Of a DNA stretch of 64,000 bases, positions 8,703 through 58,420 are shown piece by piece. The translations under genes and the position numbers were made by a program. The DNA comes from an uncultured Gammaproteobacteria bacterium (GTDB lineage: Bacteria; Patescibacteriota; Patescibacteriia; Veblenbacterales; UBA10138). The notes beneath the pieces were generated by a model. That model was not told the origin of the DNA. It did not search any database and saw only the letters and a program-made list of their open reading frames with translations. The stretch lies in assembly GCA_964348825.1 (NCBI GenBank), contig CAYGDX010000002.1:15489-79488 (forward strand). Reading direction: 5' to 3'. Positions within the stretch are counted from its first letter, which is position 1. Each line of letters starts with the position of its first letter.

Positions 8703-8860
8703 ACTTCTTTAGTAGAAGTAACCAAGAATCGCAGGCCACAGTCTTCGGGTTTGAACAGTGCTCGTCAAACGAGCTGGTTCAGGCTATGCACAACTACCAC
8801 AGCACGCCCGAACCGGACGCTCGTTTGACTTCCGCTCTGTACAAACCCTACGACGAGGCC
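8703..8860. repeat. GC-rich hairpin repeat, copy 2
   Basis: Same core as copy 1. The flanking palindrome is degenerate (TTACTTCTTTAGTAGAAGTAA). Confidence 0.8.
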
Positions 8861-9007
8861 GCATAACTGCTAATATTTTTTCATTTTACATCGTCATTTT
8901 CCATTTTGATTTTTAAATTTTAAATTAACAAAAATCCCCTGCTGAACAGGAGATTATTGTTCAATTTATGACTTAACAGTGGGCGACCGTTAGTCCTAAA
9001 TTATAGT

Positions 9008-12290: not shown

Positions 12291-15077
12291 ATGACACATC
12301 GTTATTTAACATTTTTTACATCACTTTTAATTATTATTTTAACACTCACCGACACAAAAACTTTAGCGCAAACCACCACACCGTTTTACTATGATCGCTT
12401 TGACACCAATGCTTTCCAATTGGTCGGACAAACCACAACCAGTCGTGATCGCATTCGACTTACGCCCGCCCAAGGTAGTAAAAAAGGTGCTATTTGGGAT
12501 TCAACCAAACAAGTTGTAAGCAAACAATTCACAGTTACTTACAAACTTCAAACTAAATATCAAGATACTAGAACTCGCGGCGCCGATGGTTTGGCTTTTG
12601 TAATTCAAAACGAAAAAATTAATGCCATTGGCTACGATGGCGGTAGTATGGGCATCAACATTACAAATAGTGTGGCTTGGCCTTGGGATACTTACTATAA
12701 TGTTGAATATGGTGATCGTAATCGCTTTCACTTGTGCTTACTTACCCGTGGCACTTTAATCAACAACCCCAACCATACCAACGCAATTTTTACTAGTGGT
12801 AGTTTAGCATCCGCGCCTGATACTAATATTCATTTAATTCGCTTAACCTATAATTACGGCAAAATAAAAATTTATTTTGAAGATACTACGCAGGCGTTGG
12901 GTACGACTTATTTGAATTTAAACACTGAACTAAATTTGGATTCTGGCCGGGCTTGGGTGGGCTTTACTGCCGCCACCGGTGGAATTGGCTGGCAAACTCA
13001 TGATATATTATTTTGGTCGTTTGACACTTTAATCAGGCCTCTTCACGAACCAGTAATCATAATTGGCGGTATTATGACTTCCCCACTTTATGATTCAGAA
13101 GATAGCATACTACTTGCGACTGAAAAAATCTGGGCAGACAAAAATCATTTACTCGTACAGCGTGATGATTTTTTACAAGTACTGGAGCTTGCTTCCGACG
13201 GCATAAATCCAGCCCAAAGTAATTATCAAATTAAATTTCCACCCCTTGCCACTACTCCACAAATTCCCACCTTGCAAAATGAGTTAGCCCGTTTACCATT
13301 ATCAACTTATCAACCCTTAGTTCAAGAACTAACTTTACGTGAAAAATATGTCTTGGATAATGGCGATAGTGATCACGGTGAAATGGAAGATTTATTTATC
13401 TTCACTTATGATTGGCGGAAAAGTGCGCAAGTTAATGCTCAAAGATTAAATTTATTGGTGGATAGCGTAATTAAGTGGACAAATTATAACCAAGTAAAAA
13501 TCGTGGCGCACAGTTTAGGTGGTTTGATTACTAAATCTTATGTGGCAGAGTACGGTAGCGATAAACTATCACGAATTGTATTTACTGGCACACCACATTT
13601 GGGCGCGCCGAAAATGGGTTACGTACTTTTAAGTGGCGACCTGATGGGACTATTGGGGTTCGCTGTAAATCACGAAATGATTAAAAATTTAGCGCGAAAT
13701 TTTCCCAGTGCTTATGAATTATTACCCAGCGCTAATTGGTTTAATTTCAGCGGCAATGGCCAAACTTTGAATTCTAATTTATATGGACAATATTTAATAG
13801 CGTCTCGGCAAACTTTGAGTAATTATCCAGCGACGATGAATTATTTAGTCAGGCGACAATTAAATGATGCCGCGGAATTTAACTCGGCACTAATTAATTC
13901 AGCTATCACTAATCAAAACTCTTGGACCAATGTAAACTTTGGCGCTACGGAAATTTATAATGTAGTAGGTTGTAATTTACCAACACCGGGCAGTATTATT
14001 ATTACTTCAGCAAACACTGTACCAATACTTAATTTAAACGGTGATGGTACGGTACCACTTGGTAGTGCGGAAGGAATTAATGATAATTCACGCGCCACAA
14101 TTTATTTATCTAGTGTAAAACATGATGATTTGTGTGCGAATGAAACTGCTGTAAAAATTATAGCTAAATTATTACGCAAAGTAGCTGACACAGTAACGGC
14201 TGGCTACCCATTGGCAAGTACTGTACCGCCAACTAGTTACGGCATAAATACAACTGCTACGCGAGTTGGTTCGCCAGTACTACTCCACGCTTACGATGCC
14301 GAGAATAACCACACTGGCCCAATTAACGATACAACCTGGGAAGCGCAAATTCCGGGGTCAAGTTTTGTGAGCGGTCCTTTGAACGATCCTGAGGCCAGTA
14401 AAATTATTTTACTACCCGCTGGTCAATCTTATCGCACCACTATTACTAATTTACTTGATACGGTATCTAATTTTGATTTATGGTCGCAAAATAATAGTAG
14501 TAATAACGCACCGCAAATAGCCATCTTTAATAATTTAACTTTAGAGAATGGCTCGTCAGCCGCGCGGAGTGATATAAATGAAACCGCGAGTGATTTGGAA
14601 ATTGATCAAAATGGCGATAATGATTACGAAACGATTATTACACCCATTACCAATTTTTCTAAATTACTTGATTCGGGTTGGAATTTAGTTGCCCTGCCAC
14701 TTAAAACCGGAAATGACAGCTTGCTCTCAATTTTTCCAAGCACTCTGCCTTATGGTTTTAGGTTTAATGGGCAATACATATCGAGTGAACAACTTGATTC
14801 AACTAGTGGTTGGTGGATAAAAATTAAAAATGACAACGCAATTGATTTAATTGGACAAAATTTCGCCTTAGACACAATTAATTTAATTAGTGATTGGAAT
14901 TTAATCGGCATTGGTTCAAAGTCAAAAATCGCTACCGAACTCAACACTCTACCGAACGACTTACTCAACAGCCAGTTCTTTAAATACCAAAATGGTTACT
15001 CACCGACTGACACTTTGTACCCTGGCTTTGGCTACTGGATAAAAGCTAAGCAAGCGGGGCAAATAATCCTGCGTTAA
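12291..15077 (+). CDS. secreted L-type lectin domain / alpha-beta-hydrolase (LCAT/PGAP1-like lipase) fusion protein
   Basis: 928 aa with a signal peptide. N-terminal legume-lectin-like block (RIRLTPAQGSKKGAIW ... ADGLAFVIQ). Central lipase nucleophile-elbow motif VAHSLGGLI followed by FTGTPHLGAP. The C-terminal ~350 aa is unassigned. Confidence 0.65.
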   Translation: MTHRYLTFFTSLLIIILTLTDTKTLAQTTTPFYYDRFDTNAFQLVGQTTTSRDRIRLTPAQGSKKGAIWDSTKQVVSKQFTVTYKLQTKYQDTRTRGADGLAFVIQNEKINAIGYDGGSMGINITNSVAWPWDTYYNVEYGDRNRFHLCLLTRGTLINNPNHTNAIFTSGSLASAPDTNIHLIRLTYNYGKIKIYFEDTTQALGTTYLNLNTELNLDSGRAWVGFTAATGGIGWQTHDILFWSFDTLIRPLHEPVIIIGGIMTSPLYDSEDSILLATEKIWADKNHLLVQRDDFLQVLELASDGINPAQSNYQIKFPPLATTPQIPTLQNELARLPLSTYQPLVQELTLREKYVLDNGDSDHGEMEDLFIFTYDWRKSAQVNAQRLNLLVDSVIKWTNYNQVKIVAHSLGGLITKSYVAEYGSDKLSRIVFTGTPHLGAPKMGYVLLSGDLMGLLGFAVNHEMIKNLARNFPSAYELLPSANWFNFSGNGQTLNSNLYGQYLIASRQTLSNYPATMNYLVRRQLNDAAEFNSALINSAITNQNSWTNVNFGATEIYNVVGCNLPTPGSIIITSANTVPILNLNGDGTVPLGSAEGINDNSRATIYLSSVKHDDLCANETAVKIIAKLLRKVADTVTAGYPLASTVPPTSYGINTTATRVGSPVLLHAYDAENNHTGPINDTTWEAQIPGSSFVSGPLNDPEASKIILLPAGQSYRTTITNLLDTVSNFDLWSQNNSSNNAPQIAIFNNLTLENGSSAARSDINETASDLEIDQNGDNDYETIITPITNFSKLLDSGWNLVALPLKTGNDSLLSIFPSTLPYGFRFNGQYISSEQLDSTSGWWIKIKNDNAIDLIGQNFALDTINLISDWNLIGIGSKSKIATELNTLPNDLLNSQFFKYQNGYSPTDTLYPGFGYWIKAKQAGQIILR

Positions 15078-15097: not shown

Positions 15098-15136
15098 AAA
15101 ACCCGAACAAAATATTTGTTCGGGTTTTTTATTTTT
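15098..15136 (+). terminator. rho-independent terminator
   Basis: AAACCCGAACAAAATATTTGTTCGGGTTT followed by a T-run, immediately after the 12291..15077 CDS. Confidence 0.8.
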
Positions 15137-15217
15137 TAATGATTTGTGACATAGCTGTAAGCTTTTTCGTTTGCTTGCCGCATACACGCTGTTAGGTGAT
15201 GTAAAATTTTGTTTGAA

Positions 15218-15952
15218 TTATTCCATCTTACTTCTCTTCTTTTTCCTATGGTTTGTATTCAAATATTTATCCTCAACGAAATAATTAACAGCATAAATAA
15301 AACAAACTAGTCGCCACCAAAATTTGCTTATTTCTTTATAAGTTAAATTATCTCCAAAGCATATTTGGTGTACGTACTCATGTCTCTTTTCAAATAATGT
15401 TCCTACCTGATTTTTCCAATCTGGCAAATTAACTTTTAAGTGTAATTTTGTAACAGAAAAGAAATTTTTCTCTACCTTATTTAATCTATGTTGATGGTTT
15501 TCAACTTCTTCTAAAAAATTGCATTTCAATAGTTTGGAAAAAAATGAATCAATCGTTGTTAAATTTTCAAAAAGCCGATCAATTCCAATTAATTCGCTAA
15601 TTCTAATCGGCTTTCTTGACTTACGTGTTCTTAAGAGTTGATAAGCTTCCCAGATTGTTATTTTTTCTTCCAACAGTTTTTCTAAACCATCATTATTTTT
15701 AATAATCTTTATGTCAGGAATATTTTTTAGAAGATCTTTGAAATAAACTTCCGCGGCTGTAACTAAATTTATTACGTAATTTTTTCTAGCATTAATTTTT
15801 ATTGTTTTAGTTTTTGATTTTTTTTCGACTAAGTAAACTAGCCCTACAGACTCAGCAACCTTTTTGTAAAAAGTTGTAATTGCCTCAGGGCCTCTCTGTT
15901 TAAAAAAATTTCTTTCCTTTTCGATTTTTTTAAGTGCATCTGATAAATTCAT
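15218..15952 (-). CDS. hypothetical protein with C-terminal Rx4H (HEPN-like) motif; third gene of the candidate defence island
   Basis: 244 aa, AT-rich codon usage. FEKRHEYVHQ fits the HEPN Rx4-6H signature. No other recognisable domain. Confidence 0.4.
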   Translation of the reverse strand: MNLSDALKKIEKERNFFKQRGPEAITTFYKKVAESVGLVYLVEKKSKTKTIKINARKNYVINLVTAAEVYFKDLLKNIPDIKIIKNNDGLEKLLEEKITIWEAYQLLRTRKSRKPIRISELIGIDRLFENLTTIDSFFSKLLKCNFLEEVENHQHRLNKVEKNFFSVTKLHLKVNLPDWKNQVGTLFEKRHEYVHQICFGDNLTYKEISKFWWRLVCFIYAVNYFVEDKYLNTNHRKKKRSKME

Positions 15953-16192
15953 AGTAAAATTTTATGTCACCTAACATCTCGGGATATCTGATGTTTGCCG
16001 TAGCGTAGCGGAGACAAATATGGGTGGAGGCTTTTGTATAAAAGCCGTAACCAGATATGCCGTGTTATATGATGTATGCTTTTCTTTTTGTCTCGCCTCA
16101 GCGAGACCACTTTTCTGTAATGAACAAATTTTATTTTTGTCTTGGCGAAGGGGCAGAGGGGCTGGGGGTGAATGCCCCGAAGCCAAGACTCC

Positions 16193-17677
16193 TTATTTTC
16201 TTTCTAATTGCCACTTGTAAACTCTTTTAAGCTCATAAACAGTTATTTCTTCATTTTCTTCACATTCTCTCCCTAATTGTAATTGGATGTTATTCTTTGT
16301 TTTCCATGGATCCATTGAGCTTTCCAACAAGTCTTTTATTTTTGATTTAAAAATATTCGTTATTTGAACATAATTCTCGTCCGTTTCTTGGTCATCAATT
16401 AATATAACATCCTTGGGCTTCAAAAAGGAGTATTTATCGTTTATTTCATACAATGTATCAAATTGATATTCTTTAAATTTTTTTTTACTTTCTTCGTCCA
16501 AAATTATTTTTTTATCTGTATAGATCTTAGAAAACTTACCTTTCTTGAATGTTTTTGGAAAAATGTTAACTCTCTTATACTCATCTGTTAAATTTATCTC
16601 TTTACCATTTATTTTAAGTATGTTTCTGCAGCCTGAAAAAGGCCCCATATCTCCTAGAAAATCCACATAGAGATGTGGAAAATCACAGTAAGTATCCCCC
16701 TTGTCATCAATTAATGCGATGTCGGAGTATTTTATCAAACAATCAATAGTAAAATGACCTTTGTGTTTTCGTGGCAGAAAGTCCCAAAAATCATCGACGA
16801 GTTCTTTATTATCAGATATTTTTTTTCTCTCATCGTTATTATGCTCTCGTTGCAGATGAATCAAATCTACTTCTTTAGTAAAATCCCATTCTTTTTTTTC
16901 TGTGTCTATGTATGCAAAATATTCATGATTATGACACCATAGGCCTACTGGGTGATGACTAAATGCAACATATTCCTTCCAGCGAGGCTTTGTCTCAAAA
17001 TCTTTGTACTCCCGTTGATATGGATAATTTGTATCTTTAAGATCTCTCACTAAAACTGACTTATAAAATTGATGGCCTTCCCCAACGGTTCTGAATAATT
17101 TATTTTTTATACTTACCGCCGATCTGATTTCTGCTGTTTTGGACTTTCTTTTACTTACCAGTGAAATGCCAAAAAATGTGAAAAGTATCCTGTCATTTTT
17201 TGGTAAATGTAGCATGTCTTCCAGCTCTGCCTTTCCCCATAGATAAAATTCCATTACACCTTTTTCTCTAAGTTCTTTACGGAATATATCATATGATTCT
17301 TTAGAAAAATTAGCAGACGCGGCTAAGATATACCCATATGGCGGATTTTTTGCATCCACATCAGAAAGAATTGATTTTATTTTTTTTGGACCTATTTCTT
17401 TTTCTCTTTTTCCTTGAATCATCCATAAGTTTCCCTCCATAGGATGAATCAGTTCTTCTTCGACATTATTTTCGTTTTCGGAAGTAGAAATTATTTCAGC
17501 TTTTTCATATGCACGAATATCAAACCCACTATCGCTTCCGCTTCTCCCAGTAGCTTCAATATTCTGCCAATCTTTAAAATCATATATTAATTCTCGAATT
17601 AAATCCTCAAAGCGATGGGGGTCTAAATCCTCAAAATGTATGGGGTTGTATGTTCTTGTGATTTTAGCTTTTGCCAT
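16193..17677 (-). CDS. Mrr-type restriction endonuclease (PD-(D/E)xK) N-terminal domain protein with unknown C-terminal domain
   Basis: 494 aa. The N-terminus follows the Mrr_cat profile order: FEDLIRELIYDF ... ATGRSGSDSGFDI ... WMIQGKRE ... YILAASANFSKESYD ... EFYLWGKAELEDML. The C-terminal ~300 aa is unassigned. Confidence 0.6.
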   Translation of the reverse strand: MAKAKITRTYNPIHFEDLDPHRFEDLIRELIYDFKDWQNIEATGRSGSDSGFDIRAYEKAEIISTSENENNVEEELIHPMEGNLWMIQGKREKEIGPKKIKSILSDVDAKNPPYGYILAASANFSKESYDIFRKELREKGVMEFYLWGKAELEDMLHLPKNDRILFTFFGISLVSKRKSKTAEIRSAVSIKNKLFRTVGEGHQFYKSVLVRDLKDTNYPYQREYKDFETKPRWKEYVAFSHHPVGLWCHNHEYFAYIDTEKKEWDFTKEVDLIHLQREHNNDERKKISDNKELVDDFWDFLPRKHKGHFTIDCLIKYSDIALIDDKGDTYCDFPHLYVDFLGDMGPFSGCRNILKINGKEINLTDEYKRVNIFPKTFKKGKFSKIYTDKKIILDEESKKKFKEYQFDTLYEINDKYSFLKPKDVILIDDQETDENYVQITNIFKSKIKDLLESSMDPWKTKNNIQLQLGRECEENEEITVYELKRVYKWQLERK

Positions 17678-17746
17678 ATTTCTTAATTAATTGTGCTTTT
17701 TGGAAAATGTGGAGAGGTGAATGCCCCAAAGTTAAAGCTACTTCTT

Positions 17747-19951
17747 TTATCCTTTAGTGATCTTTTCAAGTTTACACTTCGGACAAGTGTATTTCGAATT
17801 AGTTCTGTCATTTACGCTTGACTGCCACTCATGGGAACAATTTGGGCAATGCCAAGATATTTTAATTCTGGAGCCACAAGTCATTAAATCAGCCGAATAA
17901 CCTTGTTTATCATTTTTTTCTTTGTCCCAATATTTCATTAAAATGGGATATTTTTCTTTTACAGACCCTCGATTTTTTAAGATCGTCTTTTTATAGGTAT
18001 CAGTTGATTTTTTTATACCACATAGCGGGCAACTACTTAAATTTCCTGTGGTTCTGTTTGCAATAGCTGTATTCCAAGAATGACCGCAAGTTTTACAAAT
18101 CCACCAAACTTTAATTTTACTGCCCGAATGAATTGTATAAGGATCAATATCTTTGTTTTTTTGAAAATCCCATTCTTTCATCAATTGCGAATTTTGATTT
18201 GCAATACTTTGACAAAATGGACACGTACCTTCACCTTTGCTTCTACTTTTGATAGTTGCTTCCCATTTGTGTCCTTTTATACATTTCCACCCTACTCGTT
18301 TTGAACTTCCTGGCGGATACTCCGTGGGTTCTTTTTTGTTTACCTCATAATCCCATTCTTTTAATAATTCAGGATGTTTATTTGCGAAAGTTCCAGTCTT
18401 TTTTATTCGTATCCCAGTTGCCCTTTCACTTCTATTGTTATTCATACAAATTGGACAACCATAGCCCTTTCCAGTTCTACTTCCAACAGAAGCTATCCAA
18501 CTATGACCAATTAGACACTTCCAATTAATCTTTAAAGAGCTCCCAGCGGAAATTTTATTAGGACTATATGTGTTCATTTCGTAATCCCATTCTCTTAACA
18601 TTTCTGGATGGCTCTGTGCGAATGAAATTCCCTTTTTTGTCAGCAATGATTTTCTCAAATTATTTCCTGCGTTGTCTCTATAGCAAATAGGGCAACCGGA
18701 GTTTCTTTTATGTCTATTTTTTATTGATGCCTCCCAAATATGTCCAAGTTTACATTTCCAATAAACTTTTTTCTCTGAATTTGCAGTAAACATATCCGGA
18801 GTCAGTGGATTGTTTTTTGCAAAATCCCACTCTTTAGCTAGTTCAGGATTAATAAATAGTAAACTTTCTTTCTCTGTTGGTGCTGGTAATAAAGATAAGG
18901 TTTTTTTGAATTCATTTTCTCCTATTTGAATTCTATCTAAAATATATTTATCAAATTTAAGTTTTGGATTAATTTTAGAAATAATTTTTAATACACCGAT
19001 CACTAAGTCAATATATTGAGTTTTTTTATCGTAGAGAACAACATCACCATCTATTTTGGGTAACAAAGAATCTCTAACTCTAATTAGATAAATATTGTTG
19101 TCCTTAAAAATTTTATGTTTTATTAAATCTCTTTCAAGTTTATTGTCGTGCCAATATGCACCATCGATTTCAATCCCAAAACCGTCATTTTTTAAAAGGA
19201 TGTCACATTCGTACCCTTCAATTTTTGACCTCCATTTAACATTTTTGAAAAGTTTACTCATTTCGCAAAGAATAAACACCTCTAATTTTGATGTTGAAGA
19301 TTTACAAAAAGGACAACCGCTATTATTTCCAGTTCTGTTATATATTTGGGCTTCCCATGTATGCCCAAATTTACATTTCCAAAAAGCATTTAAATTACTA
19401 TTAGGTGAAATATCATTGGGGTCTATTTTATTTTTAGCATAATCCCACTCAGTTAATAATTCTGGATGTTTTTTAAATAGAATTACTCCTGTTTTTTCTA
19501 ATCTAGCCTTCCTTATTCTTGCACCCTGATTTGTCCTAGAACATATAGGGCAACCATCGCCTCTAGATCTTCTTTGTGGGGTAGATTGCCACTCATGATC
19601 TTCTTTACATTTAAACCAAAAAAGTAAATGACTTTTCTCCGAGACACTTTCTGGTCTTAGATTGTTTTTAAAATAATTCCATTCAGATAATAGTTCTGGT
19701 TTTGCTTGAGCAAAAGAGAGTCCTTTCTTTAACTTACTTTTTCTTATATTTTCATTTTTTATTGGACTGTTGCATATTTTGCATCCATTACTTCTAATTC
19801 GACTAAAAAACGATACATGGTACGTATGTTCCTTTTTACATTTCCACCAAATCTTCTTTGTGCTTGTTTTGGATAGAATAGAAGGGTTAATACCAATATT
19901 TTTTGAATGGTCAAAGTCCTTTAAAATTTTTGAAAAATCTTGTTTTTCCAT
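17747..19951 (-). CDS. multi-zinc-ribbon (DUF4379-like W-C-GH-W-GCP-C repeats) protein with central DUF559/Vsr-like endonuclease domain
   Basis: 734 aa. About 10 repeats of the pattern (H)PEL..EWDY.KN ... W.C..GH.W ... GCP.C. A central block, YECDILLKNDGFGIEIDGAYWHDN ... RD ... IRVRD, matches the DUF559/very-short-patch-repair PD-(D/E)xK fold. Confidence 0.6.
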   Translation of the reverse strand: MEKQDFSKILKDFDHSKNIGINPSILSKTSTKKIWWKCKKEHTYHVSFFSRIRSNGCKICNSPIKNENIRKSKLKKGLSFAQAKPELLSEWNYFKNNLRPESVSEKSHLLFWFKCKEDHEWQSTPQRRSRGDGCPICSRTNQGARIRKARLEKTGVILFKKHPELLTEWDYAKNKIDPNDISPNSNLNAFWKCKFGHTWEAQIYNRTGNNSGCPFCKSSTSKLEVFILCEMSKLFKNVKWRSKIEGYECDILLKNDGFGIEIDGAYWHDNKLERDLIKHKIFKDNNIYLIRVRDSLLPKIDGDVVLYDKKTQYIDLVIGVLKIISKINPKLKFDKYILDRIQIGENEFKKTLSLLPAPTEKESLLFINPELAKEWDFAKNNPLTPDMFTANSEKKVYWKCKLGHIWEASIKNRHKRNSGCPICYRDNAGNNLRKSLLTKKGISFAQSHPEMLREWDYEMNTYSPNKISAGSSLKINWKCLIGHSWIASVGSRTGKGYGCPICMNNNRSERATGIRIKKTGTFANKHPELLKEWDYEVNKKEPTEYPPGSSKRVGWKCIKGHKWEATIKSRSKGEGTCPFCQSIANQNSQLMKEWDFQKNKDIDPYTIHSGSKIKVWWICKTCGHSWNTAIANRTTGNLSSCPLCGIKKSTDTYKKTILKNRGSVKEKYPILMKYWDKEKNDKQGYSADLMTCGSRIKISWHCPNCSHEWQSSVNDRTNSKYTCPKCKLEKITKG

Positions 19952-20210
19952 GTTTTTACTTTAAATAAATCGTTTTCGTAGTGGAGCGGAGAAAACACCT
20001 TATACCCCTCTTTAATTAATGAAAAAGAAATTTGAAGATTTTTTAAAATAATCGAGCGATAGCCCAGAAAAGGAATATTCCAGCTAACTCGTTTGTATGC
20101 GAGTAGATTAATGTTTAATGTTATTAAATTATATATTATGCGAATATAAAGTATTGTAAATATAATTTAATTGACTTTAATATAGCATATTTAAGTAAAA
20201 AAAATAACTA

Positions 20211-21215
20211 CTACTTAGGCACTAAATTCGTCGGCTGATCCGAGACAAACCCGTTAATATTTTCCACCGTAGTTTGTAAAATTCGCTCCACCGCCTCGCG
20301 ACTATTAAAAGCAATATGCGGAGTAATAATTACATCATCACGATCAATCAACATATGATTGCGCGCTAAAGTTTCCCAATTACACTTCTCTGGTAACAAC
20401 TTACTCATTAATTCCCTTTCCTCTTTAATTGTACACTCATCTTCCAAAACATCGAGGCCAGCACCTAAGAGAGTTTTGTTTTCTAAGGCCTGAAGTAGTG
20501 CTTTGGTATCTATAATTGCTCCACGCGCAGTATTAATTAAAAATGCACCTTTCTTAAATAATTTAAATTTGGCCTCATTTAAAAGATGATGCGTGGCTTC
20601 CATATATGGTACATGTACGGAGACAATATCAGATTTTGAAAGCAACTCATCCAGTGGTAAGTAAGTAAAACCAATTTTTTCGGCGAGTTCTGGTTTTGGC
20701 ATACTATCATAAACTAAAACATTCATTTGAAAGCCGCGCGCAATTTGTGCTACATTTTGCCCAATTCGCCCACCACCAATTATACCCAAAGTTTTACCCT
20801 GTAAATCAAAACCCATTAAGCCGTGATAATCAAAGATACCTTTTTCAGTACGCTCATAGGCCTGAAATATTTTGCGGGAGAGTGACAAAATTAAAGCAAA
20901 AGTATGCTCCGCCACAGTTCGCTCGCCATAAGCTGGTACATAACTAACGGCAATGCCACGCTTCTCACAAGCCGCTACATCTATATGATTAAAGCCCATT
21001 GAACGAGTGGTAATAAATTTTAAACCTGGTAGTTTGGCGAGCATTAATTCATTAACTTCTGAATAAACAAAAAGCACCAAAGTGTCGTAACCTGCCGCCT
21101 CTTCAATATGCTCTAAATTCAAAGCATGATCATAAAATTTTAATTCATGACCAGATAGTTGAGAAATTAAATAATCTTTTTCAAAATGTTCAACTTCAAA
21201 AATTGCTATTTTCAT
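20211..21215 (-). CDS. D-isomer-specific 2-hydroxyacid dehydrogenase (LdhA/PGDH-like)
   Basis: 334 aa. NAD-binding Rossmann motif GIIGGGRIGQNVA and the catalytic R/E/H arrangement of this family. Confidence 0.75.
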   Translation of the reverse strand: MKIAIFEVEHFEKDYLISQLSGHELKFYDHALNLEHIEEAAGYDTLVLFVYSEVNELMLAKLPGLKFITTRSMGFNHIDVAACEKRGIAVSYVPAYGERTVAEHTFALILSLSRKIFQAYERTEKGIFDYHGLMGFDLQGKTLGIIGGGRIGQNVAQIARGFQMNVLVYDSMPKPELAEKIGFTYLPLDELLSKSDIVSVHVPYMEATHHLLNEAKFKLFKKGAFLINTARGAIIDTKALLQALENKTLLGAGLDVLEDECTIKEERELMSKLLPEKCNWETLARNHMLIDRDDVIITPHIAFNSREAVERILQTTVENINGFVSDQPTNLVPK

Positions 21216-22813: not shown

Positions 22814-24997
22814 TTATAGTTTAAATCGTTTGAGACGTAAACTGTTGCTAACGACACTAACACTTGATAAAGCCATCGCACCTGCGGCAATAATCGGATT
22901 TAAAAATCCAAGCGCCGCGAGTGGCACGGCCGCTAAATTATAAACAAAGGCCCAAAATAAATTTTGTTTGATAATCCGAAATGTCTTTTTAGTTAAATAC
23001 AGCGCTTCGAGTACTTTAAGTGGACTGCCTTGCATTAGCACCATACCGCCGGCCTCAATCGCAATATCAGTACCAGTACCCATCGCGAGGCCTAAATCAG
23101 CTTGTACCAAAGCGGGCGCATCATTTATACCATCGCCCACAAAGGCAACTTTTAAATTTTCGGCTTGTATTTTTGCCACTGCCGCGGCCTTCCCTGCTGG
23201 TAAAATTTCAGCTAAGACTTCGGTAATACCAAGTTGCTTGGCAATGGCTTGACCAGTGCGCAAATTATCACCAGTCATCATTACCACCCGAATATTTTTT
23301 TTCTGCAAGGCGGCAATGGTAGCAATTGAATCATTTTTAATGGCATCAGCAATCGCAATCAAGCCCATCAATTTATTATCTTTTGCTACACCCACCACGG
23401 TTTTAGCTTCGGCTTCAAGCTGTCCAGTTGCGCCCTCAACATTCCCCAACACCACACCTTCATTTTTTAACCAACGTAAATTTCCCACTCTGATTTTCTT
23501 ATCACGAAGCAACGCACTTACGCCTTGACCAGAAATATTAATAAAGGATGACACTGTTTCACTTGCCAAATTTAAACTCTCGGCTTTATTTGCTACCGCT
23601 TGTGCTAAAGGATGCTCAGATAATTTTTCTAGAGCGTAGGCTAATTTTAAAACCGCTTCAATTTGGTAATCTGCTTGGGGCACAATATCAGTTACGATTG
23701 GTTTGCCTTGCGTTAAAGTGCCAGTTTTATCAAAAATCACAGCTTGAATTTTACTGCCTCGTTCTAAACTTTCAGCATTTTTAATTAATACACCGCGCTT
23801 TGCGCCAGTGCCAGTTGCCACCATAATAGCAGTTGGTGTGGCCAAACCTAAAGCACACGGACAAGCAATTACCAGTACCGCCACCGCCGACATTAAACCT
23901 TGATTTAAGTCACCGGTTGTAAAATACCAAACCGCTACTGTAGCCGCCGCGATTACCAAAATAATCGGCACAAAAATTCCGGAAATTTTATCAGCCAATT
24001 TTTGAATGGGCGCTTTTTTAGTTTGCGCTTCACTTACTACTTTTACAATTTGCGCCAGTACTGTGCCTTCGCCAACTTTTGTTACGATAATTGTAAGCAC
24101 TCCATTGATATTTAAAGTGGCACCAAAAATTTCATCACCTATTTTCTTACCCACTGGCAAACTTTCACCAGTTAACATTGATTCATCGACACTTGACTCG
24201 CCACTTAACACCTTGCCATCAATTGGAATTTTTTCACCGGGCTTAATTAATAATTTATCACCAATCATAACTTCCTCAATCGGCACTTGTTCTTCCTGAC
24301 CTTGTGCATTTATTCGCCGAGCGGTTTTGGCACCAAGTTCTAATAATTTTTTAATCGCCGCACTGGCTCGCCCCTTACTTTTAGCTTCTAAATAGCGGCC
24401 AAGTAAAATAAAGGCGGTGATAATTGCGCCGGTCTCAAAATATAATTCCATCCCACTATCAAACAATATCCACCAACTATAAAAAAACGCTGCTAAAGTT
24501 CCCAGTGAAATTAGCGTATCCATATTGGCACTAAAGTAGCGTAAACGCTTAAGTAGTCCTAAGTGAAATTCTAAACCAGTAACTATAATTACTACACTTC
24601 CTAAAATTGCTTGTAGCCACAAAGATAAATCGCGCTCCCAAAAATTCCAACCCAATTTAATTTCCGCCATAGCCAACACCGCTACCGGCACAGCTAAAAT
24701 TAAAGCGGTAATGGCTTTGTTTTTAATCGCTAAAATTTCCGCTTCATCTGCCGCATGATTATGCTCATCGTGTTCTCCGTGTTCAGTGTGTACTGCAACC
24801 TTGTAACCATTTTTAATCACTGCTTGATGTAATTCGTGTTCAGAAATTTTTGTATCATCAAATTCCACTTGGGCTTTATTTAAGGCTAAATTCACTACCG
24901 CTTCGGTAACACCCGGTAAACTATTTAGACTTTTTTCATTACGCACTGCACACGAAGCACAATGCATACCTTGAATATTAAAAGTAATTGATTTCAT
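22814..24997 (-). CDS. copA: copper-translocating P-type ATPase
   Basis: 727 aa. N-terminal HMA motif GMHCASC, a CPC motif in TM6 (ACPCALG), DKTGTLT, and GDGINDAP. Confidence 0.9.
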
Positions 24998-25044
24998 ATA
25001 AAAATACTTATTTGCTAATTTCGTTAAATTAACAAATAATAAAA

Positions 25045-25320
25045 TTAGACTCGATTGGATTGCTGGTAAATTTTCACAAGCTCCATGGTGGCAAGTTTTG
25101 CACCATCTTTTTTATGAAATTGATGCGCCACATGAGTTTTTAAATGATTTTCAAGTAACAAGCGTTCTAAACTTTTAAGCGCCTCACGCATGGCGAAAGA
25201 TTGCTCGAGTAGTTTGGTACAATAATCCTCGCGTTCAATGGCGCGGCTCAGGCCATCCAACTGACCTCGAATTATTTTCGCGCGATGAAGTGCACGTTTT
25301 TTGATTTTTTGGTCAACCAT
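25045..25320 (-). CDS. csoR: CsoR/RcnR-family metal-sensing transcriptional repressor
   Basis: 91 aa. [28 protein letters not shown] shows the DUF156 layout with the Cys and His ligand positions. Sits directly upstream of copA, co-directional. Confidence 0.8.
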
Positions 25321-25925
25321 AAATGTTAAGTTAAGAGTAAGAGCAAAGAGTAAGAGTTAATTTTAAATCCGAAGCACTAAATACGAAATCCGAAAATTTA
25401 GAATTTCGATATTCGCCTGCCTGCCGGCGAGGCAGGGATTTGGGATTTTTGTTATATACCCATTACCCCTATATCCTATTATAAGAAATACGACAAAAAT
25501 TGTCAAATGGGGTATCCACTTAAGCAACTAACCGATAATAAATATTAATCCTAGCAACGAGATAGCCGCCACGCCTGAAGCCACTCCAAACCAAAAAGTG
25601 AGTACGGGTGAGGCCTGAAGCCACCAACTCCCCTCATTTGAGGACGTGGGAGTATTATCAAAGTCGGGATCAAAAGTAATATGGGACATAATTAATTAAA
25701 ATCACTAATGACTAATATCTAATTTCTAAAAATCACCAAAACCTAAATCACAATTACTAAAATTAGTTATTAGACATTTTTAGAAATTAGTGATTAGAGA
25801 TTAGAAATTAAAACTCCTCTAAACTCCCGCCTTCCTCCTTCGCCAGAGGCTTCGGAAGGACAAGCCGCGGGAATGACCCCACTTCGCTTTTAGCTACGCG
25901 GGGCAAGCAACTACGCGCTACTAAC

Positions 25926-27563
25926 TTAACTTTTCGCCACCACTACTATCTGCCCTCGGTACATTCCCATTCCACAACTAAAAGTATAGCTCCCCTGTGC
26001 TTCGGGTGTAAAGGTTACTACATTATCATCTGTTGGGCGCAAAAATACTGGTTTCACTCCCAGTCGTGGCGCTTGTAAAACTGTTACGCAACCTTGTGCT
26101 CCGCGCGCATCTATCTCCCACCGCGCTGGCACACCCACTTGCAGTGTAAAAGAATCAGGCGCATAACCACCAGTAAACACTTTCATCTTCATTACTTGCT
26201 CACGACCATTAAAAGTTACATTGGAATCTTGAGCTGAGTCGGCCTGACTGGTTGACCAAAGCGCTGATAATTTTATTGGATAACCTAAAACTGTTAAACC
26301 ATTTTGAATATTCCATAGCCCGAGCACAAGTACAGTAGCACCAGCTAAACTAAAAAACCAATCACCTAATTTACCTTTGAGTGAGCCCGACACAAAACCA
26401 AGGGCGAGTAGTGCTGGTGCGGTACCCAAAGCAAAAACTCCCAAAATAACACCACTAGTTAAAGCGCTGCCAGTTGTTAGCGCATAAAGTTGTAGAGCTT
26501 GCGTAAAACCACAAGGCAAAAAGAAAGTACCGCCACCTAAAACAAACGGCACATACCACTGCGGTTTTCCTTGCGCATCCATTAATTTATGACCAATATT
26601 TTTTGGTAAACGCGGAATTATTCGCTTTAACCATTGGGGCGCTAAATTTAACATTTCAAGTCCCATTACCAACATAAAAATTGCGGCGAGTAGTGTAATT
26701 AAACCAGTTACCCAAGGCGCGGGCGTTAAAATTTTACCAACTAAACCAATCACGGCGCCGAGTAATGTATAACCAACAATCCGCCCCGCAATAAATAATA
26801 GTACCGGTTGGAGTTGACGCAACTTACTCGCATTTTGATATTTAGCGCGAAATGTACCAATCGTAGAAAGCATCAACCCACCAGCTACTGCCAAACAACT
26901 GGAGCTCGCTGCTACCAACCCTAAAATAAATACCGCCATTAAACTAGTAGAATTAATCGCCCCAACCGCCGGACTAAGGAAACCAAGGCGCGATAAAAAT
27001 CGGCCAACTAACAAAACAATTACAAACAAGCCAACTAATTTCCAAAAACTTGGGCGAGTGGAAACTTTATCTGCTTGATTTGATTGTTGATTAATATGAA
27101 GCACTTTGTATTCACTCTCACCTAAAGATTGTTGTAATTCGCTGACTGATAACTCTGCACCACTGCAAGTAATTTTAGCACGGCCAGTACTAGAATTAAC
27201 GCTAACTTTTTCTACGCCCGGAAGCTCGCGCCAACAACGTTCTACTGTCAACTCACAACTCCGACAATGCATACCTTGAATTTGCACCTCAACTACTTGA
27301 TGTGATGGCTGACTTGGAGCTGACGCTGGCACTTCATTTTTCAACACTTCAAAACTTAAATTAAATTCTACAAAAAGTTTATGCAACACTTCGGTGGTAA
27401 TTTCGTGTTCAGAAATTAAACGCACTACATTTTTTCCACGATTAACATCTATTTTTACCACCTTAGGTAAATTACGTAAAATTACTTCTACTTTCGACCA
27501 AACGACATTATCCAACTCCCCATTTAAACGAATTTTCTTAAGATAAATTTGTTCTTGTGACAT
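25926..27563 (-). CDS. HMA-domain / polytopic membrane (CcdA/TauE-like) / C-terminal cupredoxin-like fusion protein (copper handling)
   Basis: 545 aa. HMA motif GMHCRSCELTV, about 8 TM helices, and a C-terminal beta-rich domain ending FSCGMGMYRGQIVV. Confidence 0.55.
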   Translation of the reverse strand: MSQEQIYLKKIRLNGELDNVVWSKVEVILRNLPKVVKIDVNRGKNVVRLISEHEITTEVLHKLFVEFNLSFEVLKNEVPASAPSQPSHQVVEVQIQGMHCRSCELTVERCWRELPGVEKVSVNSSTGRAKITCSGAELSVSELQQSLGESEYKVLHINQQSNQADKVSTRPSFWKLVGLFVIVLLVGRFLSRLGFLSPAVGAINSTSLMAVFILGLVAASSSCLAVAGGLMLSTIGTFRAKYQNASKLRQLQPVLLFIAGRIVGYTLLGAVIGLVGKILTPAPWVTGLITLLAAIFMLVMGLEMLNLAPQWLKRIIPRLPKNIGHKLMDAQGKPQWYVPFVLGGGTFFLPCGFTQALQLYALTTGSALTSGVILGVFALGTAPALLALGFVSGSLKGKLGDWFFSLAGATVLVLGLWNIQNGLTVLGYPIKLSALWSTSQADSAQDSNVTFNGREQVMKMKVFTGGYAPDSFTLQVGVPARWEIDARGAQGCVTVLQAPRLGVKPVFLRPTDDNVVTFTPEAQGSYTFSCGMGMYRGQIVVVAKS

Positions 27564-58318: not shown

Positions 58319-58420
58319 CCACTAGAACACTTCATCATTAAAGCATTAAAACACTTAACCACTGAACATCAAATAACCCCGCACTCATTTGAGTACGGGG
58401 TTAAATTTAACTCCTAAAAA

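Follow-up and report, generated by a model that had tools for sequence, protein, structure and literature searches.

A three-gene nuclease island in a Patescibacteria genome is probably a decaying remnant of an integron-like cassette array

Introduction

Do three adjacent genes for nuclease-type proteins, packed into one AT-rich block of a bacterial genome, form a single uncharacterised defence system, or did they arrive by separate routes? The question arises at positions 15150-20210 of a 64,000-nt stretch of DNA (the window; positions 15,489 to 79,488 of the forward strand of contig CAYGDX010000002.1, assembly GCA_964348825.1), where a first-pass annotation proposed a candidate defence locus of three genes, here called g1, g2 and g3. 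In this study, we analysed the three genes, the spacers between them and a structured element in one of these spacers, which we call E. Recombination is read throughout from sequence patterns, and protein functions are predicted from folds and motifs. The block proved to be an indel. Elsewhere, E is conserved in co-oriented arrays, where it follows diverse cargo genes and its short variable boxes are complementary cassette by cassette; such arrays are headed by a divergent tyrosine recombinase and an attI-like site, and the three genes are not co-conserved. We regard it as probable that the island is a decaying three-cassette remnant, without an integrase, of an integron-like gene-capture platform in a genome of the Patescibacteria (candidate phyla radiation, CPR).

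Results

The block is an indel and its genes are not co-conserved

The open reading frame (ORF) list of the window places g1 (17747-19951), g2 (16193-17677) and g3 (15218-15952) in one direction, all on the minus strand, within a 5.07-kb block, exactly where the first-pass annotation had put three co-directional genes. The block is flanked upstream by a 2-hydroxyacid dehydrogenase gene (20211-21215), whose stop codon lies at 20211, and on the other side by a lectin/LCAT gene (12291-15077) that is convergent with the island genes. The lower GC and AT-richer codon usage noted at first sight were borne out, with a GC of 0.319 in the island against 0.371 in the rest of the window, and a third-position GC (GC3) of 0.23-0.27 in the island genes against 0.30-0.32 in the flanking genes. 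The lowest GC in any other 5.07-kb segment of the 64 kb is 0.330, which is still above that of the island.

Starting from a protein with at least 90% identity to the dehydrogenase, we reached two contigs, L046 (GCA_964360795.1) and L047, in which the dehydrogenase and lectin genes are neighbours, 142 bp apart, and the block is absent. Nucleotide homology between these contigs and the window (~90.5%) ends at window positions 15138 and 20247. Given this break and the adjacency of the two genes in L046 and L047, the block is a true 5.07-kb presence/absence polymorphism, and the limits of 15150-20210 drawn at first reading were accurate to within ~10 nt. The edges of the island show no target-site duplications, and no methyltransferase, ATPase or helicase gene is encoded within the block, as had been reported. 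Integration linked to a tRNA gene was considered and rejected because no such gene lies near the island.

The three genes do not travel together. Homologues of g2 were traced to 40 independent genome loci, and tblastn found no g1- or g3-like gene within the 10-kb flanks of any of them. Clustering of the 502 ORFs neighbouring g2 homologues yielded no conserved partner, and among the neighbours recurrence was confined to serine recombinases at five loci, N6-methyltransferases at three, and HTH proteins. Relatives of g1 and g3 likewise occur as solitary genes, without any co-occurrence of the triad at their loci, and NCBIfam holds no equivalog match for g1, g2 or g3. The first-pass annotation had itself named missing co-conservation as what would speak against a single system, and this is what the loci of all three families show, so that part of its proposal is abandoned here. 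The broader notion of a candidate defence locus held in part: the block is foreign and all three genes encode nuclease-type domains typical of defence genes, but they are not one system. The suggested association with defence islands was recovered gene by gene, with g2 and g3 relatives found among restriction-modification (R-M) genes, recombinases and one classic defence island.

In this analysis, the host was assigned to the Patescibacteria from a few NCBI source names, namely those of the closest g2 relative, of a dehydrogenase relative in the 90%-identity cluster of the window gene and of one array recombinase.

E is a structured element that follows diverse genes in co-oriented arrays

The spacer between g2 and g3 contains E1 (15967-16075, minus strand), an intact attC-like site of 109 nt that folds as a three-way junction, has AAC...GTT ends and lies downstream of a 3' hairpin. 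Its core is the invariant 17-mer GCCTCCACCCATATTTG. Using this one exact 17-mer, a scan of metagenome contigs recruited at least 120 loci, and the whole element was present in about 98 of 131 among the matches listed. The copies fall into two size classes, 108-110 nt and 128-134 nt, both inside the attC size range. The fold consists of an 11-bp stem P1 with several compensatory variants, a P2 hairpin and a P3 hairpin of variable length, and AAC...GTT closes the junction; next to these triplets lie variable boxes of 4 nt and conserved ACATC and GAAAT. AAC and GTT are invariant in the 22 seed copies. Across these 22 diverse copies, 94% of the pairs are standard, against 25-43% in slid controls; ten pairs changed on both sides, and none of 500 shuffles reached the observed covariation score.

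A covariance model of E (R1) was built and used on the window, on the E loci and on the genomes of the g2 family. In the window it found one intact copy, E1, with 118.1 bits and an E-value of 3.6e-25. On 68 E-bearing loci it found 161 copies in 66, of which 41 carry two to seven copies, and in no locus do copies lie on both strands (P ~1e-26). Within arrays, the median spacing of E is 855 bp, and in 73 of 79 cases E has the orientation of the ORF that precedes it. The cargo beside E is diverse, with 136 proteins falling into 118 clusters; it is rich in restriction endonucleases of types I, II, IIG, III and IV, methyltransferases, GmrSD and Mrr proteins, includes NUDIX and GNAT proteins, and in some cases exceeds 1000 aa. 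E was absent, by R1, from the 40 g2-family genomes and from the surroundings of g3 relatives, and is therefore specific to a lineage or platform rather than to a gene.

No Rfam family matches E, and a reading of E as a hammerhead or other ribozyme was rejected, since the core motifs do not fit and Rfam was negative. Some copies depart from the standard fold: the variants in L165, L153 and L136 have GC-rich palindromic insertions in P3, and the region 3005-3117 of L093 holds an internally deleted 88-nt E without the 3' strand of P1. The sites thus tolerate changes in P3 and can decay, as did the terminal remnant in the window described below.

Complementary boxes and a divergent recombinase point to cassette recombination

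The same 4-nt boxes occur on both sides of E as reverse complements, but they are shuffled between partner sites. In 40 of 80 adjacent pairs, the 3' box of one E and the 5' box of the next are exact reverse complements, as compared with 10 of 147 for the two boxes of the same site and 7.9% for random pairs. A crossover at G|TT predicts this cassette-wise complementarity, and it would also explain the inverted repeat around g3 (GTT-AGGT...ACCT-AAC). This pattern of the boxes also led us to reject an earlier idea of g3, as an invertible segment or a transposon bounded by terminal inverted repeats (TIRs), and to adopt the cassette model instead.

We searched for a recombinase by tblastn, with an IntI1 sequence as the probe. 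A full-length tyrosine recombinase of ~270 aa was found in seven E loci, in divergent orientation immediately before the array; one is MFA5075988.1 of NCBI, from a Patescibacteria metagenome-assembled genome (MAG). The best NCBIfam match of these proteins is NF040815, 'tyrosine recombinase/integron integrase', with 203-234 bits around a cut-off of 220. The integron-integrase subfamily model TIGR02249 gives 208-224 bits, under its cut-off of 265, and its match is split in two stretches. In agreement with this split, which is independent of the probe, the proteins show a ~42-aa gap against IntI1; the IntI-specific additional domain, which lies around patch III, is absent.

Between the recombinase and the first cassette, an attI-type junction, GTT followed by the reverse complement of the first 5' box, stands at the predicted place in four of six loci, in a conserved context with two TCGCATA boxes. 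The left edge of the island (20040-20215) aligns to the intergenic regions of six complete platforms and to the sequence that precedes the L050 homologue of g1, and the junction in the window is nearly identical to that in L065. The island therefore begins with an attI-like site, with the dehydrogenase gene where a recombinase would be expected. A short segment at 20088-20103 had been taken for a truncated E, which was rejected because it aligns to recombinase-proximal regions and thus belongs to the attI-like site.

L050 has its g1 homologue in a cassette with an attI-like site and E, and an apparent tRNA gene on the opposite strand (~8780-8870, minus strand) lies just beyond the downstream end of this cassette. 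Modules of attI and cassettes without an integrase may move or insert near tRNA genes.

The island reads as an attI-like site followed by fused and decaying cassettes

The two unusual intergenic spacers pointed out at first reading are real, of 69 nt between g1 and g2 (17678-17746) and 240 nt between g2 and g3 (15953-16192); their link to recombination sites had not been recognised. The 240-nt spacer has a GC of 0.446 and a folding z-score of -4.15 against shuffles, and had no match in plasmid and phage collections. Both spacers open with GGGGCATTCACC, which occurs only twice in the window and lies within a 33-nt direct repeat (79% identity) that flanks g2, and a 21-nt inverted repeat (90% identity) at 15956-15976 and 15190-15210 brackets g3 exactly.

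Read along the minus strand, the attI-like region (20088-20210) has a distal TTCGCATA box at 20137-20144 and a proximal CTCGCATA box at 20096-20103, followed by AAACGA|GTT, with the GTT at 20086-20088. Cassette 1 (17716-20087) starts at G|TT with the box AGCT (20082-20085) and comprises a 5' hairpin element, g1 and a truncated 3' element. Its start inverted repeat (~20021-20088) has an inverted match in the region after the g1 homologue of L053. The 5' hairpin element (19971-19999; GGTGTTTTCTCCGC...GAAAACG) is a generic cassette part: it precedes g1 in the window but the g2 homologues in L003 and L008, which share its exact pattern (GGTRTTTTMTCCRC), with a compensatory variant of the hairpin in L008. 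At up to two mismatches, the 5' element occurs in 44 loci and the 3' element, likewise a generic part, in 67. The 5' element is a possible promoter or 5' untranslated region (UTR) element.

The 3' hairpin element (16139-16189; GTCTTGGC...GGGGCATTCACCCCC...GCCAAGAC) follows g2 in the window, the g2 homologues in L003 and L008, and the g1 homologues in L050 and L053. Next comes an end inverted repeat (16064-16137), the reverse complement of cassette-start sequences, with an inverted match of 78% at 5873-5943 of L050. It leads into E1, which has the 5' box ATAT beside AAC, GTT at 15973-15975 and the 3' box AGGT at 15969-15972. Cassette 3 (15139-15974) holds g3 within its 21-nt inverted repeat and has no 5' element, so that it is probably promoterless. 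It closes with E2 (15154-15214; ACATC-ACCT-AACAGCGTGTATGCGG...), a degenerate terminal attC-like remnant that matches the 5' half of an E copy of L050 at 82%. The rule of complementary boxes holds across g3, where AGGT of E1 pairs with its reverse complement ACCT (15194-15197).

The junction between g1 and g2 (17678-17748) consists of a degenerate copy of the 3' element (17716-17748, with GGGGCATTCACC) fused to the apparent distal half of a 5' element (TCTCCAC...), and from this arrangement we infer a deletion scar that fused two cassettes. In L050-L052, homology to the window runs from 20102 to 17716 (77.7%), through the upstream region, g1 and the first repeat copy, and then jumps to 16199-16015, in the spacer between g2 and g3. 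L050 also has matching ATAT boxes, unlike the window. A fusion between g1 and g2 would account for the missing E, for the 33-nt direct repeat and for the mismatch between the start box AGCT and the ATAT of E1. Two internal boundaries, the attC-like site that separates g2 from g3 and the fused g1-g2 junction, show that the three genes arrived as separate units and not as the single three-gene unit of the first-pass annotation.

Elsewhere in the window, a minimal hairpin between convergent genes at 58366-58408 (plus strand) has ends of the E type (ACATCAAATAAC...GGTTAAAT) and scores 13.7 bits by R1 (E-value 0.93). Either a chance terminator or a minimal site of secondary recombination could explain it.

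The three genes encode predicted stand-alone nuclease modules

The product of g1 (minus strand) has 734 aa, with three N-terminal and five C-terminal DUF4379 treble-clef zinc units around a unique PD-(D/E)xK core at residues ~220-345 (DUF4379 E-value 1e-132). The Vsr/DUF559-like core suggested at first reading was supported by family-level profiles and by fold, and the count of zinc units had to be corrected from about 10 to eight. The core shows the DUF559/Vsr pattern (...ECDIL...GIEIDGAYWH...LIRVRD), and E224, D250, E261, G264, H268, R291 and R293 are invariant among 38 homologues, of which 28 match PF18741 (REase_MTES_1575) and eight match DUF559 (PF04480); the match of the window protein itself to PF18741 is weak (E-value 0.007). 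The AlphaFold model of the core has a pLDDT of 91.5, and Foldseek related it to I-Bth0305I (3r3p, probability 1.00), to Vsr (1cw0, probability 0.99, TM 0.57) and to a DUF559 protein, while a sequence search of the PDB with the core gave no match. The closest relatives are 66-73% identical and all are solitary genes. From its fold and motifs, we read g1 as a predicted DNA endonuclease of the Vsr-like type with a zinc-ribbon array, acting as a stand-alone module. In its eight units and core fold it resembles the DUF4379 proteins with nucleases of the Vsr, DUF559 or MTES_1575 type. It differs from I-Bth0305I, which sits in an intron or intein, and from Vsr, which has a mismatch-repair context with a Dcm partner; g1 has neither setting.

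The 494-aa product of g2 (minus strand) combines an N-terminal Mrr-like nuclease with a C-region of ~300 aa for which a PUA/ASCH-like fold is predicted. The Mrr-type N-domain was confirmed, with Mrr_cat above the Pfam gathering cut-off, and D53 and Q88-x-K90 are invariant across 60 sequences; Foldseek agreed weakly, and a PDB sequence search gave no match. The family is large, with more than 1200 matches, and members at 50-87% identity occur in Patescibacteria, Deltaproteobacteria, Nitrospirota, Bacteroidota, Betaproteobacteria and one Asgard archaeon, which is a signature of horizontal transfer. The sole PADLOC match is the candidate family PDC-M58A (8e-6). We read g2, from its predicted fold, as a putative type IV (modification-dependent) restriction enzyme whose PUA/ASCH-like part may be a reader of modified bases. 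Like Mrr and MspJI/AspBHI, it would join a PD-(D/Q)xK Mrr-like nuclease to a PUA-like beta-barrel of the ASCH/EVE/SRA type, and like type IV enzymes it lacks a cognate methyltransferase, is solitary and is widely transferred. In contrast to MspJI/AspBHI, the nuclease comes first and the putative reader second, and the C-region is bigger than one PUA domain and has no Pfam model.

Two observations concern g2 homologues in other genomes. In L005 (1004-3385), L019 (5507-7915) and L006 (2817-4415), the homologue is immediately preceded by an N6-adenine methyltransferase or type IIG-like gene; some members of the clade may thus be paired with a modification enzyme, which fits oddly with a purely modification-dependent reading. 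The homologues in L003 (9941-11560) and L008 (6708-8287) carry the 5' and 3' hairpin elements of cassettes with no E within 10 kb, and that of L003 stands alone in a housekeeping context, between the genes for an H+-pyrophosphatase and ribosomal protein L25. Outside arrays, too, units derived from cassettes seem to persist or to spread.

The product of g3 (minus strand) is a stand-alone HEPN protein of the RiboL-PSP type, with 244 aa and the Rx4H motif RHEYVH. Its match to HEPN_RiboL-PSP (PF18735) spans 150 positions and scores 23.6 bits, under the cut-off of 28.4. The HEPN-like Rx4H motif named by the first-pass annotation is nonetheless well founded at the level of the family: five of six members match PF18735, the best at 4e-8, and RHE[YFIV][VI]H is kept in all five full-length members. 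A word-indexed search found five relatives, a profile search 336 cluster representatives, nearly all stand-alone and ~230 aa long, and a PDB sequence search no match. From its motif and profile, g3 is read as a predicted HEPN RNase of the abortive-infection or toxin type, again as a stand-alone module; it resembles the RiboL-PSP HEPN proteins in profile match and Rx4H motif and departs from them in its score below the cut-off.

No antitoxin or other partner gene recurs beside members of the g3 family. One relative adjoins an SLFN-like helicase, which was tested as a recurrent partner across the loci of g3 relatives and does not recur, and one follows the apparent 3' end of a type I restriction R-subunit gene. 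Another, P0122, lies in a dense defence island (L043, 1-18063) that contains a type I R-M system (HsdR/M/S), a metallo-beta-lactamase-fold protein, GmrSD, IS110, the HEPN gene, a 331-aa gene without assignment, and an OLD-TOPRIM/AAA gene beside a reverse transcriptase (a retron-like or AbiA-like pair).

Flanking sequences and regulatory signals

A bidirectional terminator hairpin (15098-15128) on the lectin/LCAT side is the sole strong terminator site found, and a match of the SraC family of Rfam to it was dismissed as chance. Terminator-like sites number 9 against a shuffled mean of 4.2, about twice as many, and a scan for sigma-70 promoters scored the real sequence no better than shuffles. 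Rfam, searched at gathering thresholds over the whole window and at E-values up to 1 over the island, gave no match in the spacers. The empty site has its own terminator hairpin, which is absent from the window.

The last ~12 codons of the dehydrogenase gene (20211-20246, minus strand) are unlike those of the empty-site genomes at the nucleotide level (…FVSDQPTNLVPK vs …FTSGKFVNLVPKV), with the remainder of the gene ~90% identical. An insertion or deletion event may have reshaped its 3' end. The lectin/LCAT gene (plus strand) encodes a 928-aa protein with a legume-type lectin domain and an LCAT-like lipase domain, an architecture that is unusual for a CPR bacterium and ~90% conserved in L046 and L047. 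Next to the island, at 22814-27563 (minus strand), lies a cluster resembling copper or metal resistance genes, which encodes a P-type ATPase with an HMA domain (22814-24997), a CsoR-like repressor and an HMA/cupredoxin/DsbD protein (25926-27563), and which is kept in the empty-site genome L046.

Discussion

We propose that a typical cassette of the platform opens with a start inverted repeat, followed in some cases by a 5' hairpin; next come a single ORF, a 3' hairpin and an end inverted repeat, and an E of 108-134 nt closes the unit. A recombinase of the Xer/IntI type would have captured such cassettes by recombination of attI with E, with the crossover at G|TT. In the window, a later deletion would have removed the E between g1 and g2 and fused a 3' element with a 5' one, and decay of the terminal E together with loss of the recombinase gene would have frozen the array. 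Each gene would be an autonomous single-gene nuclease module.

Several findings weigh against this reading. The window holds a single intact E and no recombinase that the tblastn probe could detect in its 64 kb. E2, taken alone, is non-significant by R1 (15154-15202; 11.6 bits, E-value 2.9). The start box AGCT of cassette 1 does not match the ATAT of E1, and the fusion that would explain this is itself deduced from the junction. The boxes are complementary in half of the adjacent pairs only; missed or decayed intermediate sites, or changes of one nucleotide, could explain the other half. The E loci are a narrow sub-family sample, as they were recruited by one exact 17-mer. The invariant junction GCCTCCACCCATATTTG is atypical for attC and could mean a role in RNA or protein binding besides recombination, or instead of it. 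PADLOC returned nothing for g1 or g3 and, for g2, a candidate-family match alone. Finally, the passage of PMC9668308 that cites Messier & Roy 2001 reports the IntI-specific domain, which the array recombinases lack, to be necessary for attC recombination.

Among the other explanations, we considered that the island might be an ordinary, horizontally acquired defence islet, and that E and the hairpins are RNA elements common in the lineage, either 3'-UTR elements, terminators or elements of the repetitive extragenic palindromic (REP) kind. Such elements would be at home 3' of co-oriented ORFs, the invariant junction and the stable folding of E as RNA are in keeping with them, and the window has no recombinase. 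We nevertheless judge this unlikely, because RNA or REP-like elements do not predict box complementarity in 40 of 80 pairs against 7.9% at random, nor a junction of GTT and box beside a divergent tyrosine recombinase, nor extreme diversity of cargo with strict co-orientation, and no Rfam family matches. The inverted repeats of ~70 nt around the g1-type unit and of 21 nt around g3 could also suggest non-autonomous transposons with TIRs, similar to miniature inverted-repeat (MITE) or palindrome-associated (PATE) transposable elements, which carry nuclease genes as passengers and rely on a transposase in trans. Exactly such repeats are expected of a circularised cassette with a long attC stem, however, and the units stand head to tail in arrays with a tyrosine recombinase rather than scattered; since, moreover, the island edges lack target-site duplications and no transposase recurs in the cargo, we give this idea very little weight.

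The proposal from which this study started, in which a zinc-ribbon nuclease, an Mrr-like nuclease and a HEPN RNase form one operon and function together, has in its favour that the genes are co-directional, tightly packed and all equipped with nuclease-type domains, that they were gained or lost jointly relative to L046 and L047, and that the lack of a canonical terminator after g1 or g2 makes co-transcription possible. It is nevertheless highly improbable, in our view, given that the genes do not co-occur at the 40 g2 loci or at those of g1 and g3 relatives. The intact recombination site E1 separates g2 from g3, the g1 homologues in L050-L052 lead directly into the sequence that follows g2 in the window, L003 and L008 have g2 alone with the same 5' and 3' elements, and no multi-gene model of PADLOC matches.

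With the island read as a cassette remnant, the arrays of E elsewhere gain weight of their own. Somewhat tentatively, with the odds in our view slightly short of even, we suggest that they represent a previously undescribed integron-like system of Patescibacteria/CPR, with a short Xer/IntI-like recombinase that functions in the absence of the IntI-specific domain, composite three-way-junction sites with an invariant core and long inverted repeats at the cassette ends, cassettes that often carry a 5' expression element of their own, and a cargo dominated by restriction and other nucleases, which could serve ultra-small, CRISPR-poor bacteria as a platform for the exchange of defence genes. Among the papers that could be searched, none describes integrons or attC families in Patescibacteria/CPR. 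A survey of the groundwater (aquifer) defensome that covered CPR MAGs kept only complete integrons called by IntegronFinder (PMC12259885). The locus alone is ordinary; the integron-like CPR platform that it exposed is apparently undescribed.

It follows for annotation that three adjacent nuclease genes such as these are not to be recorded as a new multi-gene defence system. E is widespread, resembles attC in behaviour and is served by a recombinase without the domain held essential for integron integrases. This domain is treated as diagnostic, and IntegronFinder requires it (PMC9668308); pipelines of this type would miss such platforms or at best call clusters of attC sites without an integrase (CALINs). 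If the platform is confirmed, the range of integron-like systems reaches the CPR bacteria, the arrays offer a natural test of whether the IntI-specific domain is required for recombination at structured sites, and, with E as the sequence tag, they can readily be mined as a large source of restriction and defence candidates encoded by single genes.

Among known systems, the platform shares with Xer-dependent modules (XerA/XerC/XerD) a recombinase that scores at or above the XerA-type NCBIfam cut-off. The pdif modules of Acinetobacter plasmids are likewise discrete gene modules bounded by recombinase sites. The dif and pdif sites are duplexes of 28 bp, however, in contrast to the structured E of ~110 nt, and pdif modules are bounded by inverted pairs of sites and do not form long co-oriented arrays beside a dedicated recombinase.

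The likeness to classical integrons, above all to sedentary chromosomal ones with homogeneous attC sites such as the Vibrio cholerae repeats (VCRs), extends over several features. Cassettes are co-oriented, hold one ORF and are followed by an imperfect palindrome with AAC...GTT ends, in which the bases beyond GTT count as part of the following cassette. In seven related loci, an attI-like site and a divergently oriented tyrosine recombinase stand at the head of the array. The cargo is highly diverse and comprises R-M and defence genes, both of which integrons are known to carry in their cassettes (bioRxiv 10.1101/2024.07.02.601719; PMC10661359). The platform differs from integrons in that its recombinase lacks the IntI-specific additional domain and that E is a three-way junction with an invariant 17-nt core, extended by cassette-end inverted repeats of ~70 nt. 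Many of its cassettes have a conserved 5' hairpin and so may be self-expressed, its cassettes can be large (2.2 kb for g1), and its host lineage is the Patescibacteria. Given the missing IntI-specific domain and the atypical sites, we call the platform integron-like and not an integron sensu stricto, and the copy in the window corresponds, in these terms, to a CALIN-type remnant.

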